From: Ginglymostoma cirratum
Taxonomy: Eukaryota
DNA: 64,000 nucleotides
Direction of reading: 5' to 3'
Assembly (NCBI GenBank): GCA_024137785.1
Contig: JAHRHZ010000133.1
Span: forward strand, 25,037,874 to 25,101,873
Positions 4,721-62,145 of this stretch are shown here, one piece after another. Every line of letters starts with the position of its first letter. Positions within the stretch are counted from its first letter, which is position 1. The position numbers and the translations under genes were made by a program. The notes under the pieces are model-generated. The model did not search any database. It was not told the DNA's origin and saw nothing but the letters and a program-made list of their open reading frames with translations.

Positions 4721-4943
4721 GTTCGTTTAAAAACAAATACCAACACCAACTAAAATACCGAGGAAAAGACTTCCAAAAAAAAATTTATGAACTTTTTTTT
4801 CCAAGTACGGAACAACATAATCTCAGCCCATGATAAATTATATACCCAGAAAATTTGTCTTTGCCTGAATCACGCATACCCAATTAATTTCCTCAGGTAA
4901 CGTTCCACAGCTGTTCTCCCTTCCCCGATCAAACTAAAGCAAA

Positions 4944-5072
4944 GTAAAAACCGAAAGAACTGCAGATGCTGTAAATTAGGAACAAAAACAGGAGTTGTTG
5001 GAAAAGCTCAGCAGGTCTGGCGGTATCTGTGAAGAAAAAAGTCAACGTTTAGGGTCCGGTGACCACTCTTCA
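4944..5072 (-). mobile_element. Short Penelope-like element with degenerate hammerhead core and 13 bp target-site duplication
   Basis: Direct repeat AAACTAAAGCAAA at 4931-4943 and 5073-5085. Minus strand starts TTGAAGA-GTGGTCACCGGACCC-TAAAC-GTT and ends CAGCATCTGCAGTTCTTTCGG. Confidence 0.75.
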
Positions 5073-5719
5073 AAACTAAAGCAAAACTCTTAACATCACT
5101 CGCTACCTTCCATGTTGCCAACATCCTTGCTCTCCTTAGCATAACAGGGCCGTTTGTCTCAATAGTTCAGGAATCATCACCTTCCATACCACATTCAATT
5201 ATTTCCTCTTTGTATCTGCTCTGATAATCTTCAGCCCTACTAGATTCAGGAGCCGTGCTGTGTGCAGAGTTTTGCATAAGACAGGTAGGGCACATGATTA
5301 TATTTGTTTTTCGTGCATGTTCAGGTCACCAGCCTGAAGCCCGACGCTGCACTTTTAGGGCCGTCATTCTACACCAAACAACGGCACCATTTAACCAATA
5401 ATGCAGTCAATAACGCCATCTGATACTTTGGTATAAAGAACCACAGAGGGGGTAAACCCCAAGGGGCAAAACCCACGTTAAAATCAGCGATATTTTATAT
5501 ATACCACTGAGCGCAAGTTAAGAACAATAATACCATAGCCTATGTCTCAAGCTCTAGTTCTAATGCTGTTCGTACGATATTTCAATTGCTAGACTGTTTT
5601 CTTTTAAAGTGCCAACGCATTACCCTGGGGTAGCTGTATCATACATATAGCATGACCAGTGATCGAATCATTTTCGTTTGATTCATTGATCAGCCCCATA
5701 ATGTTGGCGACTCCTGCTG

Positions 5720-5920
5720 AGGGGCTCTGTTATCTCAGTTGACTGGACGGCTGAATACAATGCAGAATGACTCCAATAGCATGGGTTCAATTCCCCTACT
5801 GCCTGAGGTTACCATGAAGGACTGGGGACTCTCCTTCTCAACCTTTTCCATTACCTGAGGCGTAGTAACCTTCAAGTTAAACCACCACCAGTCGTCTCTC
5901 TCTAAAGAGAGAGCGCAGTT
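5720..5920 (+). mobile_element. tRNA-derived SINE (family not named)
   Basis: A-box/B-box-like head (tctcagttgactgg...gggttcaattccc) and body CTGAGG...CCTTCTCAACC...GTTAAACCACCACCAGTC. Second copy at 42965-43175. Confidence 0.7.
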
Positions 5921-6099
5921 ACGCAGGCACCAATTCCTGTCACATTGGAATTTTGAGTTCAACTATCAAATGATTGCCTTGCAAGTTGCACTTTTATTAA
6001 GTATTAATATTTGAGACTCAACCATGGAAATATGATGAATTATTGGTGAAACAAATGTACTTCGAGTCAGTGAAACTTGTACTTACGTGGCGCTTTTAT

Positions 6100-6221
6100 T
6101 GTGCAAGTTAGATATGTTAGCCATGGGAAAGCAGGATTACAGGGAGGGGGCGGGGTGCTCTTCGGAGGGTCAGTATGGACTTGTTGGGCCGAAGGGTCTG
6201 CTTCTACACTGTAGGGATTCT
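6100..6221 (+). mobile_element. 3' fragment of HE1-like SINE
   Basis: gctcttcggagggtcagtatggacttgttgggccgaagggtctgcttctacactgtagggattct matches the 3' part of 2178-2519. Confidence 0.75.
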
Positions 6222-6408
6222 TTTAAAAAAATCAGTGACAAGTGAGCATGTGCTTTTCGATCGAAACCGCGCTTGCTTTAGCTCATTCTGAATGTTAGGA
6301 GGCTATGGCGTGCGGGAATGGGAGTGGGGTGGGGGGGTGAAATTGAAGGGGATGGGGGTTGAGAATTTTTTCCTGTATAACATTAGACGAGTAAATACCA
6401 AACTGTTT

Positions 6409-6626
6409 GAGATAGTAAGAACTGCCGATGCTGGAGTCAGAGATAACACAATGTGGAGCTGGATAACCACAGCAGGCCAGGCAGCATCAGAAGAGCAGGA
6501 AAGTTGACGGTTCGGGTCGGTACCCTTCTTCAGAAACGAGACAAACAGGAGGCTGGAAAAGCACAGCAAGCCAGGCAGCATCTGGAGGAAAGGAGAAGTC
6601 AACGTTTCGGGTATAGCCCTTAAGAG
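6409..6626 (-). mobile_element. Two adjacent short Penelope-like repeats with degenerate hammerhead cores
   Basis: 6409-6535 is the same family as 42564-42690. Its minus strand reads CTGAAGA-A-GGGTACCGACCC-GAAC-CGTCA. 6541-6626 is a related unit reading AGGGCTATACCC-GAAAC-GTT. Confidence 0.75.
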
Positions 6627-9600
6627 GTAACTTCCAGGGACCACTTCCTGTGGAGATTGAAAGACGCTAGTTTTAGCTGCACCTCTCTGCCCAGCGCCGA
6701 AACAGTTCCGCCCTGGCAGTACATGTCCAGCTCTCCACTCCCGGCCAAGTTGGCATCTACAATGTCTGAAATGGAGAAAGTGTAAGGCCAAAATCTACCC
6801 TACCTCCCTTCGGATTATTTTAACCTGTGCTAAATTCATCAAAGAGCCTTCCAAATGTCTTAATACGCTATTCGACAAACACGGCTTCAAATCAGGTTGG
6901 AGTTGTATCCTAGACTTTACCTGACTTAACGATACTCTGCGATCAGCCACACAAAGTTTCCTCCTGTTTGGACTTGTGCACAGAATTTAACTCTCGGTGG
7001 CTGTGAAGAGCATAAGTTAGCTTTATGTTGACTTGAAAAATCTTTCAATACTATGTCCCAAATTTCGCAAGAGGTTTTAGAAGAACTTAAAAATGCAGCT
7101 TTGCGTCAGGCTGGAGCTGTATCGGAGCTGGTGTGCATTGAGATTCGCGCCAGACCAATTCTGGGCGAGCCCTCGACTCTGTACCGTTTGAGACGGTGTA
7201 TACCTTCGGCGGAATAGTGGACGTTTAAGTAATCCCTCAACTGCAGTCAGGTATGGCCTGGGTTCTCACCGAGAAACGGAAACGTTGTACAGTCAATGAG
7301 CGGCGCTTTTAGCTGTGCCAAGGCTCGCCGTTTTGTAACGCTGATAGATCTACCGGGACTGACAGTTCGGTCTGACAAGTGTATGCAGGACTCAACGCTG
7401 AAAAAAAAAGAAATTGGAAACAAAATAGAGGGAAAGAAAAGCTTTGTACAGTTATCAAAATAGCGAGCAAACTGTAAAAGGGAAACAATACAGAAAATAG
7501 TGCCGATAAATTGGAATAAAATGAAAAGACAACGAACAAATTGACATTATCATATATTGAAATAGAATGAAATATGAACAGACGTTATTAATAAATAATT
7601 CGGTAGCTAGTACGTAGGTAAATATTTATATATATATTTGTGGAAGGATGTCGACTACGCGAAGAATGAAGATGTTACAGTGTGAGAGAATAATGGAAGT
7701 CTTGTATAACGTGTATTTTTTTTAAAAGTTTGTATTTTAAACAAGGAATACGTAACTTTGGTAGTCAGAACGAATTTTGGTTTAAGTTTCATCATAACTG
7801 CACTCATTTCCTAACGTTCAATGTTCGTTTTTCTGTAATTTTGAGTGAACAAACTATACCTGTGACTCCTTACGCTGCTGTTTCCAATGAAAACTGGGAC
7901 GTGTTCAGAGCTCCGTGCAGAGATAACGCTTTGCCGCTTGGTGACGCTAAAGAGGCGCAAAGCCAAGTATGAATCATCTATTGACAGAGGTCACCAGATC
8001 TTCAGTGCCCCAAGTGTTCTGCCAACAAAACCCTCAAAAATATGATGAAAGTACATTGTGATCTTCGTTTCAAGTTGTCTGATGTTAAGGTTGGGATTAC
8101 CTAGTTTTGTACTTTTTTTAACCTAACAACAGAAAATGTGGGTGGGCATTTGTCAAATATTTCCATCCATCTCTACAGTGTCTGTACTCTCCGCCTCAAA
8201 TTTACGAAAAGAATATTTCCAATTCTAAACCAGCAACAGTATTAAGTCCCAACTTTGACACCATCCGTTCTTTTTCATCAGATCGGCTAAAGAAATAAAC
8301 TAAAAGGCTTCCATATTTGATCAAATCTTTAATTTCGTGCGTTTGGTTGCGAAATGCTAGAAACTGTGTTAAAATCTGCATTTTCTAGAGGAATAGCGAG
8401 AACTGTAAGCTTGACAGCAATTGCAATAGTAATATTTATTGCGTGTGTAAATGTCGTTTACAATTTTCTAAAGTTCAGAAGTCAACTAGTTATTGGAAAT
8501 GCCAAAATAAAATCCATTCCTAACTTTAAAAGAAGATTTTGTAGCATTTGTCAGCTATCGATCCGCTTTATTCCTGTCACTTTTAACAGTTATATTGTTT
8601 GCAAAGAGCGTGGCCCATGTGCTGTTTCCCCAGTTTTCAGAGATGCCTTGTCCCTATAGAATAACAAGAGACAACTCTATTAGAGCAAAAATTAAAGAAA
8701 GCGAAGCTTTACAGTCCTATCAGAAAGTCGACCTGTCAGAAAAGTGGAATCTGATTTTTTTTTGTTGTTGCAGTGTTGTTTGGAATAGAAGCAAAATGAA
8801 AAGCCGGCTGCTCCAGACCAGGTATCTGAGCTGTCCGCGCTGCATCCACACCACCCAGAGAGAAGGGAGGTACTCCTTCCCGGAAAAAAAAACTGGGCAC
8901 ATTTACAGACAGCTCGAGTCCGTCAAAACACACAGCAGCATTGCTCCCTAGCCTGATAGCCAGCGGTTATTGTCAGAAGTGGGGCACTGTCGCCCAGCAC
9001 AAAGTGTAAGCGGACGCAGCTTCAGTAAAGAGCGTTTACAAATATCAGATTCAATATTTTCCGGCTGGCGATGCAACCTTTTCTGTTTCATTAAATGACA
9101 CGGAAGTTCTGCCCTAGTCTTGTTTCATTTATTTTTTAAATGAGTTTGTACGGACAGCAGTCGCTTACACGGTCGTTGTTACCAAAGACACAAATTGAAA
9201 ACACATTTCCCCAGTGATTCGTTTATCATCGAACACAACGCAAAGATGAACATCCCAAATACAAGAAATAGCGCAGCAAGTGCCAAGAGTCGAGGCGAGA
9301 AAAAAAAGTGCACTTTGAGTGAAATAAATACATAGCAATGTACTGTTGGCAAACTTCGAATGAATTGTTTTTACGGAACGATAGAATAAATGCAGAGCTT
9401 CTACTATTGGCAGTTGGACTGACCTAGAAATTAGATCTACATCATGCTTCTGTGTTCTTGTTGTGCTTCCGTTAATGAGACAGGCTGCGAGTTACCACCA
9501 GTGTAGGGAATGCAATTTTTTACAAAAACACAAAACACCAACAAAGAGAGAGGAGTCTTGTTTCCAGAACCCGTGGAATGTGTTCAACTGAAAAAAAGAG

Positions 9601-18469: not shown

Positions 18470-20345
18470 GTATTACTACTGCCCCAGCCCCTGTCGCCGG
18501 TATTTCTCCCATTCCCCGCCCCCAGCGCTTGATCCAACCCGGGCTCCTGGCCCCAATCCGAGTTCCCACCCCCCAATACCTGATCCAACCCTGCCTCCAG
18601 CCCTGACCCAACCTGGCTCCTGCTCCCAAACCCTGACCCAGTCCCAGTCCCTGGCCCAAACCTGGCTCCTGCCCCCAACCCCTGACCCAGTCCCAGTGCC
18701 TGCCTCCAGCCCCGACCAAACTGGGCTCCTGCCTCCAATTCCTGATCCACCCATCTCCCAACACCTAACCCCTGGTCCAACCCTGGCTCCCAACACCCAT
18801 CCCTGATCCAACCTCAGCTCCTGCCCCTAATCCCTGATCCGACCCTGGCTCCCATTCTCCCAACTCCTGATCAAACCCTGAGTCCTGCTCCCAACTCCTG
18901 CTCCAGACCTAGTCCCTGCCTCCAGTCCCTGACCCAAACCCTGATCCAGCCCCCAACCCCTAATACCACCCCAGCTCACAACCGCCAACCCATGATCCAA
19001 CCACAGCTCCCGCTCTCCATCCCTGATCCAACACTGGCTCCAGACCCCAAACCATCATCCAACAATGGCTCCCACCACCCCCATTCCTGATCCAACACCG
19101 GCTTCCACACCCATAACCCCTGATCCAACTCTGGCACCCACCCCCAATCCCTGATCCAACCCTAGTTCCTTTACCCAATCCCTGATCCAACATCGGCTCC
19201 CACCTCCCAACCCCTGCACTAACATCGGCTTCCATCCCCCTCCCCCACCCTGATCCAACCCCAGCTCCCAACCCCCAATCCGTCATCTAACCCCGGCTCC
19301 CACCCCACCCAATCCCTGATCCAACCCCAGCTCCTGTACCCAATCCCTGACCCATCCCCAGCTCCCACCCTTGCCCAACCCCTGACCCAACCCCACCTCC
19401 TGCCCGCCAAATCTCTGACCCAACCTTCCCCCATGTCCTGGTCCAAACACAGCTCCTGCACCCCAATCCTTGACCCAACCCCTGCTCCCACCCTTGCCCA
19501 ATCCCTGATCCAACCCCGGCTCCAAACTCCCAATCCCTGACCTAACCCCTACTCCTGTCCCCCAACCTCTGATCCAACACCGCCTGCCAAACTGAACTAC
19601 TGATCCAACCTCAGCTCCTGCCTCAAATCCCCGATCCAACCCCGGCTCCCACCCACCCAATCCCTGATCCAACACTGCCTCCCACATCCAATCCCTGATC
19701 CAACACCGCCTCCCACATGCAATCTCTGATCCAACACTGCCTCCCACATCCAACCGCTGATCTAACCCCGCCTCCTACCCCAACCCCTGATCTAACCCGG
19801 CTCCCAACCCCAACCCCTGACATAACCCCACTTCCCGCCCCCCAACCCCTAATCAAACCCCAGCTTCTGCTTCCAACCCCTGATGTAACCCCACCTCCTG
19901 CTCCCCTCCCCCCAAATCTCTGATCCAACCCCAGCTGCTACTCCCAACGCCTGATCTAAACCTGGCTCCCATCCCCCATGTCCTGGTCCAAACACAGCTC
20001 CTGCACCCCAATCCTTGATCCAATCCCGGCTACCACCCTCAATCCCTGAACCAAACCCGGCTCCTGTCCCCAACCCTGATCCAACCCCAGCTCCCGCCCC
20101 CCTCATCCCCAATCTAACACCGGCTGTTGTCCCCAACCCCGATCGAACCCTGACTCCCACATCCTCCCCCGACTCCTGATCCGACCCTGGCTCCTGCTCC
20201 CAATCCCTGATCCAATCTTGTTGCAGTCTCCTACCCCGATTCCCAACTCGAGAGCTCCCTGGCTCCTGCACCAGTCTCCCGTCAGAGCCTAGTTTCTGCC
20301 ATCCAGCCCCTTATCTAATCCTGACTCTTGCCCCCGGCTCCAGCT
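18470..20345. repeat. C-rich degenerate minisatellite, unit ~30-35 bp (core CCCTGATCCAACCCCRGCTCC)
   Basis: Dozens of imperfect tandem copies with extreme C-over-G skew on the + strand, and an identical 47 bp block at 19427-19473 and 19972-20018. Confidence 0.95.
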
Positions 20346-20784
20346 CTGCCCTGAGTCAAGTTTTCTAACACTGAGGCAGCGCAACATCAAACACAAACAC
20401 ATGAACCAGGGATTCTTGCTCTGCGTGGGCCTGGGAGATGTGTTTGGGGTGGAATTACAAGGGTGCGTGTGGAGGGATGGGAGGCAGGAGAGGTGCGGTG
20501 TGGGGGCGGGATGGGGGGGGTGAGGGGAATGCAGGGGCTTCTCTCACTGTCAACCCTTGACTGCAGCCACTCACAACGCATCCGAACTGGGGACTGGAGC
20601 CTGGGACCCCGAGAAAATAGTTCTGCTCCTCTTCCTCCTCCTCCTCCTGGAGTTCAATTCCCGGCCTGCGTTAAATTTAAAAAAAAGAGATGGAGAGACA
20701 ACAAAATGACAATAAGAGAAAATCCACAAACTTTTCAAAATAATAGAATGGAAGCGTGCTGAGAAAAGCAACCACCATCCGGAG

Positions 20785-20838
20785 GAGATAGTAGGAACTG
20801 CAGATGCTGGAGTGGCCTGCTGTGTTCACCCAGCTCTA
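20785..20838. mobile_element. 54 bp internally inverted Penelope-like insertion with 12 bp TSD
   Basis: GAGATAGTAGGAACTGCAGATGCTGGAG joined to TGGCCTGCTGTGTTCACCCAGCTCTA, the opposite orientation of the same family. Flanked by CACCATCCGGAG (20773-20784) and CACCACCCGGAG (20839-20850). Confidence 0.8.
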
Positions 20839-20999
20839 CACCACCCGGAGCATTTGGTTGGGTGGGGGTGGGGTGGGGGGAGGTGAGGTAAGGAGTGAGT
20901 GCAGAGTGGAATGGGAAGTGGAGGTTTGTGTGTGGAGTGTTGGGGGAGGGGGGGGGTGATTGGAGGGTGCTGCTTGGGACGGGGTTGGGGGGGTTGGGG

Positions 21000-21373
21000 T
21001 GGCGGTGACGCGGCTTTGACCTCTTTCCACGCCCTGGCGCTGTAGTGTTCCGCCAGCAGGAGGAGGAGGAGGAGGCGGAGAGGGGGCGCGGCGCTGATTG
21101 GCTGCGGCGCGGGGCGACGCGCAGGCGCGCCGGCGGCTGTGATTGGGCAGCCAGGGGCCGGGCTCCATGGGCGCGGAGCTGCCTGGCTCCGAGCGACCTC
21201 TTCTTAAGAACATGAAGTAGTGGCTCTTTTTTTTTACTACACGGAGTTGCCAACGTTTGTGCGATTTGCGGTCCAACTGTGCTGCGGCGATCACAATTTA
21301 TTTTTTTTATTATTATTATATTTTTTTCTCGGGATTTTTTTCGGGAAAAAAATCCCCCGTGTGTGTGTGTGTG
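21000..21373 (+). promoter_or_regulatory. FOXG1 CpG-island promoter and 5'UTR
   Basis: High GC/CpG, a (GGA)n tract and two reverse CCAAT boxes (ATTGG at 21097-21101 and 21142-21146, each in a TGATTGG context) directly upstream of the ATG. The TSS cannot be determined from sequence. Confidence 0.75.
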
Positions 21374-22603
21374 ATGTTGGACATGGGAGATAAGAAAGAA
21401 GTGAAGATGATCCCCAAGTCTTCGTTCAGCATAAACAGCCTGGTGCCCGAAGCGGTGCAGAGTGACAGCCGCCAGCGCGCTGGCCCCGAGCACGATGACA
21501 AGCCATGCTTGCCAGCTCTCGACACCAAGCCGGAGAACGCCGGCGGCAAAAGCGAGAGCAGCTCGTCGGATCCAGTCGGCTCGGACGACAAGGACAAGCC
21601 CGAGGAGAAGAAGGCCGACGGCAAGGAGGCAGACGCCGGCAAGGAGGGCGAGAAGAAGAACGGCAAGTACGAGAAGCCCCCGTTCAGCTACAACGCCCTG
21701 ATCATGATGGCCATCCGTCAGAGCCCCGAGAAGCGGCTCACCCTCAACGGCATCTACGAGTTCATCATGAAGAACTTCCCGTATTACCGGGAGAACAAGC
21801 AGGGCTGGCAGAACTCCATCCGACACAACCTCAGCCTGAACAAGTGCTTCGTCAAGGTGCCGAGGCATTACGACGACCCTGGGAAGGGCAATTACTGGAT
21901 GCTGGACCCATCGAGCGATGATGTCTTTATAGGCGGCACCACGGGCAAGCTCCGCCGGAGATCCACCACCTCTCGGGCCAAGTTAGCCTTCAAGCGGGGA
22001 GCGCGCCTCACCTCCACCGGCCTGACATTCATGGACAGGGCAGGTTCCTTATACTGGCCGGTTTCGCCATTCCTGTCCCTCCATCATCCCCGAGCCAGCA
22101 GTACCTTGAGTTATAATGGAACCACCTCACCTTATCCCAGCCACCCGATGTCCTACAGCTCGGTGTTAACTCAGAACTCTCTGGCAAACAACCACTCCTT
22201 TCCAACTTCAAATGGCTTAAGTGTAGATAGACTTGTGAACGGAGAAATTCCTTACGCCACCCACCACCTAACGGCTGCAGCCGCCTTGGCTGCCTCGGTG
22301 CCGTGCGGTTTGTCTGTTCCATGCTCCGGCACGTATTCGTTAAACCCCTGCTCGGTAAACCTTCTGGCAGGACAGACGAGTTACTTTTTCCCCCATGTTC
22401 CTCATCCTTCAATGACTTCTCAAAGCAGCACTTCAATGACGGCTAGGACAGCGTCGTCCACGTCTCCACAGGCGCCTTCAACTCTCCCCTGTGAATCTCT
22501 AAGACCTTCTTTGCCAAGTTTCTCCACAGGACTTTCTGGAGGACTTTCTGACTACTTCACACATCAAAACCAGGGGCCCTCTTCAAACCCTCTAATACAC
22601 TAA
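21374..22603 (+). CDS. FOXG1: Forkhead box protein G1 (BF-1), single coding exon, 409 aa
   Basis: Starts [24 protein letters not shown] (eh1-like motif, Ser19). Forkhead domain [31 protein letters not shown]...[10 protein letters not shown] starts at 21674, followed by RRRSTT, YWPxSPF and C-terminus SSNPLIH, all near-identical to vertebrate FOXG1. Confidence 0.99.
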
Positions 22604-40500: not shown

Positions 40501-42563
40501 TTTGAATCCAATATTATTAATATTTTTTTCATTTAAACCCACTGAGCCTTGGAGAACTCAGATCTTATAAAAGTTCATGTTATTTCTGAAAGTTTCTAAA
40601 AGTTTAAAGCATTATACCTGATTTATATTAAATATCAAAACAAACGAGTTTAGCTTATATGTAGACGTTTGAACAATTCAGTTGTATTCACTCTGTTGGC
40701 CATTAAAACATTGACATTGACATTAGAGTATTGTATTGTAACAAAAATAAATCATATTACAATAAATTTAAATTTGCAATAGAATTTGGACTGTTTACAT
40801 TTTTGGTAATATTTCATTAATAGCTTAATATCTTGTGATTATTATTTGGGATAATTAATACATGTGAAAAAATATCAACTAAAACTTCTCCTTTAGCACT
40901 TCATCGCTGCTAAGTAACAGTGAATGAGTCCATATTTGTTTTTGTCAACACTGTTAGATTTATACAAAATAAATGTTTAAGTTTGATACTTGTGTATAAT
41001 GCTGGATCTATTTTTAACAGTTTTTTTTGTTAAGCTGGTAGGGAGGGTGGTGCAGTGGCATTAAGATAATACTGTAAATGTTTATAAACAGACTGTACTC
41101 TGATTTGTAGCAAGCAGAGACAGAAACATTCATTCTCTGAAGCTCATCTCCATGCTTATTAGGTATAAATATGGTAGAAACCTCTTAAATATGGTAAGTT
41201 ATAGAATTAAATGAATTGTTAGCCTTATGAAAATTCAATATATGCAATCTGACAAATGCAGGAAGGCAATGTCCGTTGACCCATGGTCTACATTAAATAT
41301 AAAATAAAGTTGTTCATCCTGTGTGTATTGTTCATTGTTTCAAAGAAAGAGAGATGGAAAGTGAGGCTATCAGAAATGAGAACATTTATATGTGAGACAA
41401 CTTTCAATCTCGGAAGAACAACTAGAATTGGAGCAGAAAACTGAAGACAATACTAACAGTCATATTTTAAGATTTCATGGATTGGTTATGTTACTGGACT
41501 TTAGTTATTTATAATGGGTGCCACCATTAAAAATGCAGTGCAATAATTGTTTAAATTTGCAGCCTTGCAGGTAAGTATTCTTTTGTGGGACCTTTGCTGA
41601 ATTAGACTTTAAATAAATATCAATATGCACCAGTTGCTTATTAGAGTTAATGAGAAAAGTGTCTCTTTTTTCGTCTCACTGTTACAGATTTGATGTGCCA
41701 CCTTACAGAGTTAATGTGTGATGCAAAATATGCAATTCTTTTAATTATATTGACAATCTGCAACACATTGCTTTCCAATATATTTTCTTTAACTCCCAAT
41801 AAGTTCAGTTTCTCTCCAACTTGCAAAACATTTAGAAGTAGTCACAATATTTTTGGAAGAACCTATATCTCTGAAGTTTGAAAGGTAAAAAAAAAATTGG
41901 AAGAGGGAGCAAGGAATATTAAAACCAAGACATGTATACCCATATACACCAGCACTGGAAAGCTAGCTATATATATGTTCATTCAATAAAATTATAAATG
42001 GTTCATGCTGTCCAGTACAATTCCAGTCATCAAAACTGTACTTATAATGACCTCTTGTTAAAACAACATAGGGGCACAATCTGATATACTGTCAATTTTT
42101 GTGATTACTCTTTGCTGGTGTGTAATATTCTTTAATCATATGACAGGGGTGAGAGTTTTATCATTAATCGTAAATAAAGTGGCATTCTCAGAGGGAGAAA
42201 AGATAGAGCAAATGGTGAATGGATGTTCAATGTTATGAATGAACAATGAATGTTACTGCTGGAAATATATGTGGAATGCTGAATGCTGGAGTGTATTATA
42301 TGGAAAACACTGAGCTCTGCAGCAGCCCAGCGCAGTACTGGTTGAACAATTCAATGTGGGACTTGCAAGGCTGATGAAGTGGCAGAGTTAGTGATTGAAA
42401 TGCAGGGAGATATTTGAAGCAGTTAGGCTGGGAAAAGAGAACATTGATTATAAATGAACAGGTGGGTGAAGCAGCTGGAATGTAAGGCAGAGGAGAAAAC
42501 AAGCAACATAGCAAATGTAGGGTGAAAATAACTGCATAGCAGACACAAAAGATGAGAAAAGAT

Positions 42564-42781
42564 GAGATAGTAGGAACTTCCGATGCTGGAGAATCTGGGA
42601 TAACAAAGTGTAGAGCTGGATGAACACAGCAGGCCAAGCAGCATCAGAGGAGCAGGAAAGCTGATGTTTCGGGTCGAGACCCTTCTTCAGAAGAAGAATC
42701 TCGACCTGAAACGTCAGCTTTCCTGCTTCTCTGATGTTGCTTGGCCTGCTGTGTTCATCCAGCTCTACATCTTGTTGTCTT
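42564..42781. mobile_element. Palindromic (fold-back) Penelope-like insertion with 13 bp TSD and two defective hammerhead cores
   Basis: ~90 bp inverted arms 42599-42688 and 42690-42779 around a single central base. Direct repeat AGAAAAGATGAGA at 42555-42567 and 42782-42794. Confidence 0.9.
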
Positions 42782-42964
42782 AGAAAAGATGAGACGTTAA
42801 GATGAAGTAATATATAAATATATTATATATAATATATATATAAGTAATATATAAAAGACACTTTTAGCCAATGGGCTGGAATTAATTTTTGTTGAGGTGT
42901 GTGTGTGGAGTTATTAACTAGGTTGAATCAAGCAAGTTACTATCTTTCAGACATGTGATATGAG

Positions 42965-45033: not shown

Positions 45034-46096
45034 GGATGGAAAATTCTGGACCATTCTCGTCCATTCCGTCCATTCTGGACGGAAAATATTCAACATGGTG
45101 CTCAGTTACGAGTGGTGTACCACGAGGATCTGTTCTGGGTCCTCTTCTATTTGTGATTTTTGTAAATGATTTGGATGATTAGCAAGTTTGCAGACGATAT
45201 GAAAGTGGGTCACGTTGTGAACAGTGCAGAGGGCTGTTCTAGGTTACAAAGGGACATTGATAGAATGCAGAGCTGGACTGAGAAGTGGCAGATGGAGTTT
45301 AACCCTGAAAAGTGTGAGGTGATTCATTTTGGAAGGACAAACTTGAAAGCAGAATATAGGGTTAACGGAAAGATTCTTGGCAATGTGGAGGAGCAGAGGG
45401 ATCTTGGGGTTCATGTTCACAGTTCCCTGAAAGCTGCCACCCAGGTGGATAGAGTTGTTAAGAAGGCGTATGGTGTGTTAGCTTTCATTAATAGAAGGAT
45501 TGAGTTCAAGAGCCGTGAAGTTATGCTCCAGCTCTCCAAAAGCCTGGTTTGGCCACATCTGGAGTATTGTGTCCAGTTCTGGTCACCTCATTACAGGAAA
45601 GATGTGGAAGCGTTGGAAAGGGTGCAGAGGAGATTTACCAGGATGTTGCCTGGAATGGAGGGAAGGTGTTACGAGGAAAGGTTGCGAGAGCTAGGGCTTT
45701 TCTCTTTAGAACGACGAAGGATGAGAGGTGACTTGATAGAGGTGTACAAAATGATCAGAGGTATAGATAGAGTAGACAGCCAGAGACTTTTTCCTAGGGT
45801 GGAGGTAGCTTTTACGAGGGGACATAGTTTTAAAGTGAAAGGAGTTAGATATTGGGGAGACGTCAGAGGTAGGTTCTTCACTCAGAGAGTGGTCAGGGCG
45901 TGGAATGCATTGCGGAGAGGGTAGTGGAGTTGGCCTCATTAGGGGCATTTAAGCGGCTATTAGATAGGCATATGGATGATAGTATAAGGTAGGGATGGAG
46001 GTTAGATAGACCTTAGGTTTCGGACAAAAGTTCAGCATAACATCGTGGGCCGAAGGGCCTGTTCTGTGCTGTACTGTTCTATGTTCTATGTTCTAT
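45034..46096 (+). mobile_element. Young 5'-truncated CR1 (HER1-like) LINE, RT C-terminal half plus 3'UTR
   Basis: ORF 45166-45924 with ISKFADD, WQMEFNPEKCEVIHFG, HLEYCVQFWSP, LERVQRRFTRM and FFTQRVV..WN.L. (TTCTATG)n tail and possible ATAAT TSD at 45029-45033 and 46095-46099. Confidence 0.95.
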
Positions 46097-50347: not shown

Positions 50348-50606
50348 GGGGCAGCACATTGGCTCAGTGGTTAGCAATGCTGCCTCACAGCACCAGGGAC
50401 CCTACTTCAATTCCAGCTTCAGATGACTGTATAGAGTTTACACATTCACAGTGTGTGTGCATGGGTTTCCTCCCACAGTCCAAAGATGTGCAGGCTAGTT
50501 AGATTAGCTGTGGAAAATGCAGGGTTACAGGGGTAGGCCTGGGTGAGATGTTCTGTGGAGGGTCAGTGTGGGCTAAATGGCCTGATTCCATACTATTAGG
50601 ATTTTA
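50348..50606 (+). mobile_element. HE1-like SINE
   Basis: GGGGCAGCACATTGGCTCAGTGGTTAGCAATGCTGCCTCACAGCACCAGGGAC head and CCTCCCACAGTCCAAAGATGTGCAGG body. Confidence 0.85.
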
Positions 50607-51064: not shown

Positions 51065-51645
51065 CATAAAACCTGGATGCTAAAAAGGTTCTGGGGCCCT
51101 GTGTTCCAGAACTAGCTATGCACCAATCCAAGCTGTTCCAATACATCCACAACAGTGGTATCTACTTGGAAATGTGGAAATTTGCCCAGTTATGGCTGTA
51201 TACAAAAAGCAGGACAAATTTAACCCAGTCAATTACTGCACTATCATTCTACATTTGGTGATCAATAAAATGATGCAAGGGTCATGAACAGTACTATCAA
51301 ACAGCATTTGTTAAGTAAAATCTGATGCTTAATTTGGGTTCTGTCAGGTCTACCCAGCTCCCGACCACATTACAATCATAGTTTAAACATGGACAAAAGA
51401 GCTGAATTCCAAAGGTAAACTCAGAGTGACAGCCCTTGACATGCTGGAACTGCCTCCCTAACTGTATTGTGGTGTACTTACAATAAATGGACTACAATAA
51501 TTTAAGAAGGCAGCTCACCACCAGAATGATAGTACAGTAATTGACTGGGTTGAATTTGTCCTGCTTTTCTCAAAGGTAATTGGAGGTGGACAATAAATCC
51601 TCGCCCAGCCAGAGAAGGCCACATCCCCAAATGACTAAAATAAAG
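51065..51645 (+). mobile_element. Old CR1/L2-group LINE, right part with 3' tail
   Basis: WKFAQ...YKKQDKFNPVNY and ALD motifs, AAHHH-type end, and tail ggacaataaat...cacatcccc. Confidence 0.65.
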
Positions 51646-53289: not shown

Positions 53290-54180
53290 AAGTTGCATCT
53301 ACAAGTTTGGCTTTAAGTGTTTTAAAAGGAGGAAATGATGAATGAAATGCAAGAAGGGAACTCCAGACCATGGAATTCAGATGGCTGAGGTGATTGTTGA
53401 GCTGAATGAAGACAAGATACGTAAGAAAACAAAGCCAGAGAAATGTATTCTTTGGACAAGGAACTGGAGGTGGCCTCAGAATTTAGAAAACTATGAAGAA
53501 GTTTAAAAATAAGAATGAGAATTTTAATGTATGAGCTGTATTGGACTTAGCATGAGATAGGAAATGGGCATCAGAGTTTTGGATGAGCTGAAAGCTAAGA
53601 GGCAAACCGGGTGAACGCTGGAATAGTTGAGTCAGGAAATGGCAAAGGCATGACGACCAGATTAGTAAGTTAGTGGCAGATAGGGATGCTACATATGGTG
53701 CATGATGGAGATGGTATGGAATAAGAACTCTCCTTTGGCTGGAATAAAACAAGGATTGTAGAATCACTACAGTGCAGATAGAGGCCATTTGGCCCATTGA
53801 GTCTGCGCCGACCCTCTGAAGAGCACACCACCAAAACACACCCACGCACCCACCCATCATATCCCCATGATGCCATATTTATCATTGTTAATCCATATAG
53901 CCTGTACGTCCTGGCTACTATGGAACAATTGTAGCATGGCCAATCTATCTGACCTGCACATCTTTGGCCTGTGGGAAGCTCCTGGAGTACCCAGTGGAAA
54001 CACATGCAGGCTCAGAAAGAACATGCAAACGTGAAGTCGCAAACGCTCTAGTTCAACTTGAAACAATGGCCAGGAGCAGCTTTGAATCAGTGTTGAAGGA
54101 ACTAGGTTCATGAAGGAAGCTGAAAGAGAAGCTTTTGGACTATCAGATATTTACTTATTGTGGGAGTAGAAGTGGAAGTT
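53290..54180 (-). mobile_element. Decayed L2-type LINE, interrupted by a SINE
   Basis: Minus strand FQLIQNSDAH (L2-type LQL.QN.AAR) and FKIL-like segment. Confidence 0.5.
53757..54035 (-). mobile_element. HE1-like SINE (5' head missing)
   Basis: Reverse complement has TTTGCATGTTCT...TGCATGTGTTTCC...CTTCCCACAGGCCAAAGATGTGCAGGTCAG...GCTCTTCAGAGGGTCGG...GGGCCAAATGGCCTC. Confidence 0.8.
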
Positions 54181-56954: not shown

Positions 56955-57050
56955 TTTGAAACGGTCACCAGACACAAAACATTAACTCTGATTTCTCTTC
57001 ACAGATGCTGCCAGACGTGCTGAGCTTTTCCAGCAACTTCTGTTTTTTGT
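56955..57050 (+). mobile_element. Decayed short Penelope-like repeat (family of 4944-5072)
   Basis: ggtcaccagacacaaaacattaactctgatttctcttcacagatgctgccagacgtgctgagcttttccagcaacttctg is the reverse-complement equivalent of 4985-5065. Confidence 0.7.
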
Positions 57051-61774: not shown

Positions 61775-62145
61775 CAAAGAGAGTTGGGGGTACTTGTATG
61801 TGAAACACAGAAAGCTAGTGCACAGTGCAGCAGGTAATCAGGAAGGCTAATGGAGTGTTAGTTCTTATTTCAATGGAGATTGGGCTATAAGAGTAGGGAG
61901 GTCTTACTGCAACTGTACAAGATACTGGTGAGACCACATCTGGAGTATGGTGAGAATTTTTTAACGAAAATACATCAATCATTGCAAGCAGTTCAGAGAA
62001 GGCTCACTAGGATAATCTCTGGTATGGAGGGATTATGAGCAAAGGCTAAGCAGGTTGGGACTTGACTCACTGGAGTTCAGAAGGGTGAGAGGTGATCTCA
62101 TAAAAACACAGGATTCTTAAGGGGCTTGACAGAGTAAATATTAAG
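61775..62145 (+). mobile_element. Decayed CR1 LINE fragment
   Basis: QQVIRKANGVL, VLLQLYKILVRPHLEY and SLEFRRVRGDLI motifs. Confidence 0.8.

Follow-up and report, generated by a model that had tools for sequence, protein, structure and literature searches.

The FOXG1 locus and its short insertions

The window analysed here, a 64,000-nt stretch of the Ginglymostoma cirratum genome, is the vertebrate FOXG1 locus, with an intronless FOXG1 reading frame at 21221-22603 (plus strand) whose best solved match is forkhead box G1 (E 4.6e-69). A C-rich, degenerate minisatellite with a period of ~31 bp lies upstream of FOXG1 (18512-20258), and a 46-nt inverted repeat, 96% complementary, occupies 51205-51250 and 51523-51568, with 272 nt between its arms. 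The window also contains tRNA-like SINE copies in both orientations (2177-2507, 6138-6208, 50349-50579 and 53775-54006) and a 252-aa frame at 45166-45924 (plus strand), which we take to resemble a CR1/L2-type LINE reverse transcriptase in its C-terminal part; pieces related to this frame lie near 61889.

Scattered through the same DNA are short hammerhead-bearing units, which we sought across the 64 kb with BLAST and a profile search, numbering positions from C3 of the CUGANGA box as +1. The profile search returned six strong arms and one weak piece, and the arms fall into five insertion loci. All five units named in the first-pass annotation were present where it had placed them, and the lengths that it gave as ~127-129 bp measured 129, 128 and 127 nt; it had overlooked a seventh and an eighth arm, at 20785-20841.

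At 4944-5072 (minus strand), a 129-nt unit of subfamily B, with a tail and a mutated core, starts at U4 of the CUGANGA box, flush against a target site duplication (TSD). As had been claimed, this 13-bp TSD (4931-4943 and 5073-5085) is exact; among 300 random positions, none reached a score of 13 and three reached 10 or more. The T-rich end of the right TSD copy abuts the box, where 3-4 nt of microhomology may exist, to judge from the similar upstream letters of the copy at 56955. The latter (56955-57050, plus strand) is a tail-less subfamily B unit with a destroyed core, for which no TSD was found; the claim that it begins at about the same place holds by comparison with the 4944 unit, although its 5′ end has no independent bound.

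Two further units are joined head to tail. A subfamily A unit of 128 nt (-3 to +125) with a tail spans 6409-6536 on the minus strand, and a tail-less subfamily C unit with a destroyed core, at 6539-6627 on the same strand, adjoins its -3 end. The second had been described, as 6541-6626, as beginning at about the same place as the others: its start does lie at the box edge, but with so mutated a core it can be placed only to about +7 to -3, and the unit is part of one dimer of two subfamilies (6409-6627), for which no TSD was found. The DNA upstream of the dimer is single copy, as seen from the depth of public-run contigs at 6630-6750.

The copy at 42564-42690, previously taken for a unit of its own, proved to be one arm of a head-to-head insertion, and its 5′ end is the fold-back junction. 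The left arm (42564 to about 42690-42692, minus strand) belongs to subfamily A and carries the tail, the right arm (42686-42781, plus strand) is a tail-less subfamily A copy identical to it at 82 of 93 aligned bases, and the two meet in a TTC(T/A)GAA quasi-palindrome. One 13-nt TSD (42555-42567 and 42782-42794) encloses the insertion and has 4 nt in common with the element end. A mini inverted insertion of ~60 bp (20773-20850) combines the tail alone (20785-20812, minus strand) with a body fragment (20813-20841, plus strand) inside a 12-bp TSD with one mismatch (20773-20784 and 20839-20850). This insertion sits in the GC-rich 5′ region of FOXG1, ~0.5 kb upstream of the coding region. TSDs were found at three of the five insertion loci.

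The optional tail is ~32 nt long (6409-6441, minus strand, in the subfamily A unit), is present in three window copies and absent from three, and can by itself form the short arm of an inverted joint. A 3′ end of the CAGCATC.G.AGTTC type had been proposed; the motif is indeed found in the three tail-bearing copies, but their true ends lie 9-14 nt beyond it. No convincing direct-orientation tail was found upstream of the free tail-less copies 6539-6627 and 56955-57050, where the best local scores were matched by 4-54% and 76-87% of random windows, and a tblastn search of the window with the ORFs of relatives found no remnant of a Penelope-like element (PLE) ORF at E<0.05.

Of the eight arms in the window, six begin within ~7 nt of C3 and the other two inside the unit; no arm continues farther upstream. 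The six do not count as independent observations, as three are bounded by an arm-arm junction and that at 56955 only by comparison with 4944. The shared 5′ boundary that had been noticed near the box is nonetheless real, being visible in these arms and in a peak of loose ends at -3 in sequencing runs. It is a strong mode and not a rule, since the arms at 20785-20841 stop inside the unit.

A minimal hammerhead motif within the units

By inspection against the minimal motif of PMC4209133 (this and the sources below are cited for the parts of their text available to us), we recognized a minimal type I hammerhead at 6506-6533 (minus strand), with CUGAAGA, an extra base, stem II and GAAA-C-G-U-C as its visible parts. 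C3 corresponds to 6533 and C17 to 6506, and cleavage is expected between 6506 and 6505. The boundary therefore differs from the ribozyme cut site, as had been pointed out, with C17 at 6506 and the 5′ end at 6536. An Rfam search returned no hammerhead at E≤1; there is no helix III stem, and stem I amounts to ~2 bp in subfamily A. The damage previously reported in the cores extends to all six window copies, each of which is changed in the core or in helix III. A15.1 is altered in the 6409-6536 copy, whereas ~92% of the depth in run X1 reads the conserved base, and the 42564 copy is changed at a single place, the helix III palindrome, where CG reads CA.

Folding z-scores were unremarkable for two subfamily A copies (0.40 and -0.54) and reached -2.5 for unit B. 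A consensus fold of 24 copies of the coral-type family described below predicted an outer helix, with no two-sided change in six pairs, and a matching outer helix was predicted in the window copies too; on this evidence, structural conservation amounts to no more than a lead. That the boundary might be caused by the box pairing with the tail end was supported neither by the consensus fold nor by folds of the window A copies.

The 5′ boundary in public sequencing runs

Contigs of four public runs (three organisms, three studies) were aligned to 6330-6750 at 80% likeness, yielding 7061 to 46968 records per run. This test covers the boundary in subfamilies A and C, and that of subfamily B rests on two window copies. 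Both ends of the 6409-6536 unit coincide with loose-end peaks in all four runs. At the 5′ end, 6536, which lies 3 nt before C3, there were 201, 591, 506 and 1271 loose ends per run with an agreement of 0.33-0.35, and at the 3′ end, 6409, there were 340, 1452, 1166 and 2400 with an agreement of 0.38-0.39; these figures come from 24 of 1168 rows, contigs collapse young copies, and internal truncations are uncounted among the loose-end rows listed. Among those rows, the next on the 5′ side after 6536 in run X1 held 14 and 13 loose ends.

Since loose ends should accumulate where the reference copy ends whatever the model, the test lies in the agreement. At the internal control 6539, where other subfamily C copies run on into the tail, agreement was 0.44-0.54 and the consensus was readable. 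The consensus behind 6536 begins TGGGG in all four runs, indicating that a minority of copies continues into shared upstream sequence, and is then T-rich. A T-rich stretch 13-23 nt past 6536 mirrors the A-rich flank before 6409, which may be read as the pattern expected of target DNA in register. In a rough simulation with an assumed background, agreement was at least 0.46 if at least half of the copies continued at a hazard of at most 0.01 per nt, and 0.36-0.40 if at most 30% continued, the 0.40 obtained at zero continuation overshooting the observed value. Our reading is that most copies stop within about 10-15 nt while a minority continues; mixed subfamilies could mimic part of this, as low agreement could also come from several subfamilies with differing upstream sequence.

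Inversions account for 12 of the 15 joints listed, out of 110. Among these 12, six have an arm starting at 6536/6537, seven have the tail alone as the short arm, and five sense arms start inside the unit. In two of the inverted joints listed (6504-6536 and 6505-6537), an arm ends at the ribozyme cut site (+29/+30), and one X10 contig with such a cut-site joint has a depth of 1359 against ~16 for single-copy DNA; these arms are possibly a minor class copied from cleaved RNA and later amplified. Head-to-tail joints from 6536 to 6409 occur in 1, 9, 1 and 4 contigs per run, with short sides of 26, 27, 25 and 52 nt, giving 15 contigs in total against 2569 loose ends; they carry the flag 'between: not known', with 31-36 intervening letters in two X10 contigs. 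A 17-fold drop in depth from the middle of the unit to the core was considered as a truncation profile and discarded, as short contigs of many subfamilies align best mid-unit.

A coral-type relative with an open reading frame

A hammerhead-pattern scan of metagenomes gave 80 matches in 78 loci, grouped to 60 loci, of which one group of 12 may be over-merged; the pattern demands an intact core, and shorter copies are invisible to it. It had no matches in viral contigs in the first scan and none in prokaryote genomes. A viral contig of 61.5 kb does match the pattern (L079:4001-4023, minus strand), and from L001:4006 onward a hammerhead unit of another family is joined directly to GIY-YIG-like sequence, likely as a partial tandem.

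The metagenome matches share the hammerhead sequence of the window copies; in the family that we call coral-type, likeness to the window units beyond the hammerhead is slight. In five coral-type loci, a long ORF on the same strand stops 94-98 nt upstream of C3. RVT_1 matched one of four frames tested (E 2.4e-6, just below its cut-off), and GIY-YIG matched the one frame tested (E 6e-5). A single longer homolog was found, named as an Acropora protein. A CxxxRCxxC linker is visible in the ORF, and a Zn-finger-like linker between reverse transcriptase (RT) and endonuclease (EN) is described as a feature that Neptune shares with Nematis (PMC8557442). Judged from these motifs, the coral-type unit is the 3′ end of an autonomous element, probably Neptune-type.

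After four loci of other families and seven cut by contig ends were dropped, 49 coral-type 5′ ends could be counted, and 27 of these lie no more than 30 nt upstream of C3. The rate of ends was 0.022 per nt at 0-30 nt upstream, compared with 0.0076 per nt at 31-150 (p = 0.0009). A TSD of 9-14 bp flanks 15 of 47 copies examined, six of these 15 being direct short units that start at -3 to -30, and some junctions overlap the TSD by 1-3 nt. The inverted pair at coral-type locus L005, which ends at +140 with the tail on one side and at +88 without it on the other, resembles the 42564 insertion. Coral-type ends scatter over -3 to -30 in a T-rich tract and do not fall on one base. The boundary is therefore common to the window and coral-type families, and broader in the latter.

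Origin of the units and of their shared boundary

The window units, members of an abundant set of pieces some 90-130 nt long, are likely short terminal copies of the pLTR type, that is, 3′ termini of a PLE, likely Neptune-type, with partner and clade inferred from another animal. The features that they share with termini of EN-bearing (EN+) PLEs are a minimal type I hammerhead, an optional tail at either end, and tandem or inverted insertions with TSDs; continuity with an RT and GIY-YIG ORF was seen only in the coral-type relative. Two features of non-LTR retrozymes were looked for and not observed: a tandem series of two or more units whose hammerheads are complete (contigs could miss arrays elsewhere) and a canonical hammerhead with full stems I and III. 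These comparisons bear out the earlier suggestion of mobilisation by a Penelope-type RT. A separate non-autonomous family, which had also been put forward, is not needed, as the same short units are produced by a PLE family that carries an ORF, though such a family may still exist. We found no description of a hammerhead-edge 5′ boundary or a strong-stop product in the open literature, and the regularity may be unreported; subscription journals, Repbase/Dfam and preprint supplements lay outside this scope and may describe these repeats.

We give somewhat better than even chances to run-off on a linear RNA, in which the two classes of 3′ end, separated by about 32 nt, would mark two internal RT start sites and the shared 5′ end would be an RNA start just upstream of the box. 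Transcription would begin at the pLTR promoter, in truncated as well as full-length copies; RT would prime at about +125, including the tail, or at about +90, without it, and run off the 5′ end of the RNA to yield a strong-stop-like cDNA. The product would then be finished, or a second arm would be primed from the other nick to give inverted products, or RT would jump to another RNA, as in the A-C dimer. We favour this reading because it needs only known parts and explains the flush joints, including the jump between subfamilies. Published PLE parts (nicking of both strands, two internal RT starts and a pLTR promoter) account for the 3′ classes as well as for the inverted arms consisting of the tail only and for the head-to-head pairs. 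A defined RNA end, one of the options offered in the first-pass annotation, is supported as one possibility. By eye, there is no DPE-like match at the expected distance, and an Inr-like match at -4 is weak and was read from the consensus of loose ends. A 3′ splice site was rejected, as position -3 has no AG. It is possible, if unlikely, that the ~128-nt unit propagates itself as a SINE-like element dependent on PLEs, with an internal promoter setting its 5′ end and internal RT initiation its 3′ end. Any intact solo copy would then be a master, without a circle or ribozyme activity, and inverted-tail insertions would be traces of a PLE dimer that had primed two times on a single RNA.

The boundary could instead arise on a long autonomous PLE RNA, if RT stalled, or the RNA were trimmed to a protein-protected domain, upstream of the hammerhead, and T-rich target microhomology were used at the first T-run. 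The T-rich setting of the coral-type ends, several with 1-3 nt of TSD overlap, fits this proposal, as do the TTT start of unit A, the T-rich TSD end at unit B and the 5′ microhomology junctions known for a PLE (PMC3846280); listed with these is the upstream sequence of subfamily A, which the G-run in the loose-end consensus indicates to be C-rich. However, an RT moving 3′ to 5′ would unwind the hammerhead before reaching the box, so a stop there should not be due to the ribozyme fold; the box pairs with the tail end only in some coral-type single-sequence folds, and joints at exactly 6536, whether inverted, head-to-tail or in the A-C dimer, fit an end-to-end jump from a real RNA end. Stalling is the main rival to run-off, though on balance we regard it as rather doubtful. 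Ordinary random 5′ truncation, with the boundary as a limit of similarity between subfamilies combined with the reference-copy end, would draw on the fact that any copy reaching that end must pile up at 6536, on the arms that start inside the unit (two of eight in the window and 5 of the 12 listed), and on accounts of PLE copies as heavily 5′-truncated, with single minimal hammerheads genome-wide (PMC4209133, PMC8557442, PMC8969392). It is improbable in view of the TSD flush against the box at 4944, the single-copy DNA upstream of 6627, the low agreement behind 6536 relative to the 6539 control, the flush joints, and the threefold higher rate of ends near the box in an independent family whose upstream sequence is in hand.

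The circular or concatemeric retrozyme template considered in the first-pass annotation fares worst. In this scheme, hammerhead-cut tandems would give a covalent RNA circle of ~128 nt, copied for one turn, in which -3 adjoins the tail end. Circles have been proposed for PLEs (PMC4209133), retrozymes are reported as PLE derivatives, including in one cartilaginous fish (bioRxiv 10.64898/2026.07.22.740005), and the 6536-to-6409 joints are present in all four runs, three of them with a short side of 25-27 nt, that is, with the tail moved 5′. Yet a copy started at the tail-less site should run past the box into the tail, whereas tail-less copies stop at the box and the two free ones lack a convincing tail upstream; the window dimer joins two subfamilies; and the joints are few beside the loose ends, with the intervening letters noted above. 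Stem I of subfamily A is short for such a cycle, the variable coral-type ends misfit a fixed circle junction, and a template jump yields the same permuted product. We consider a circle highly improbable.

The repeat itself is ordinary and decayed, and what bears on PLE mechanism is the regularity at the hammerhead edge. How PLEs come by their pLTRs, tails and inverted copies has, according to PMC8557442, yet to be defined. The peak of 5′ ends, seen in two animal families far apart, and the inverted arms made of the tail alone provide countable genomic predictions for the PLE cycle, and such a boundary would explain thousands of single minimal hammerheads per genome without circular retrozymes.

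Comparison with known systems

Single minimal hammerheads are widespread and have been ascribed to truncated PLEs (PMC4209133), and solo pLTRs, tails, inverted pLTRs and junction palindromes have been described (PMC3846280, PMC8969392). The terminal region of Penelope contains an internal promoter (PMC2377424), and transcription of Chlamys-3 also starts in the pLTR (PMC8557442). The window units most resemble solo pLTRs of EN+ PLEs, with the Neptune clade closest, in the terminal minimal type I hammerhead, mostly as single motifs (PMC4209133, PMC8557442, PMC3846280), in the optional 30-40 bp tail at either end and in head-to-head copies with palindromic junctions; the TSD size, 12-13 bp, is near the 8-10 bp of a rotifer PLE. 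In the descriptions of EN+ PLEs available to us, 5′ truncation is variable and solo pLTRs are possible products of recombination or deletion, whereas here TSD-bearing short units have 5′ ends that peak at the 5′ edge of the hammerhead.

For PAc, a Poseidon element of the green anole, both strands are reported to be nicked and extended, with RT initiating internally on the RNA at two sites that flank the tail and without a need for ribozyme cleavage (PMC11167929). According to the same source, these starts lie ~111-118 nt past the point where stem II begins, and window units end ~117 nt past stem II; the PAc hammerhead overlaps the ORF start, whereas that of the coral-type relative lies 94-98 nt after the stop codon, and we found no positions of 5′ ends given for PAc. 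Animal non-LTR retrozymes are likewise short, non-coding, PLE-related, dispersed as monomers and equipped with a type I hammerhead, and are defined by tandem units and circular RNA (PMC7229834; bioRxiv 10.64898/2026.07.22.740005). They are described with tandem repeats, intact ribozymes (canonical in PMC7229834) and circular RNA, whereas in the window family tandems are rare, the motif is minimal and its stem I weak, and the copies bear the tails of PLEs as well as TSDs and inversions.
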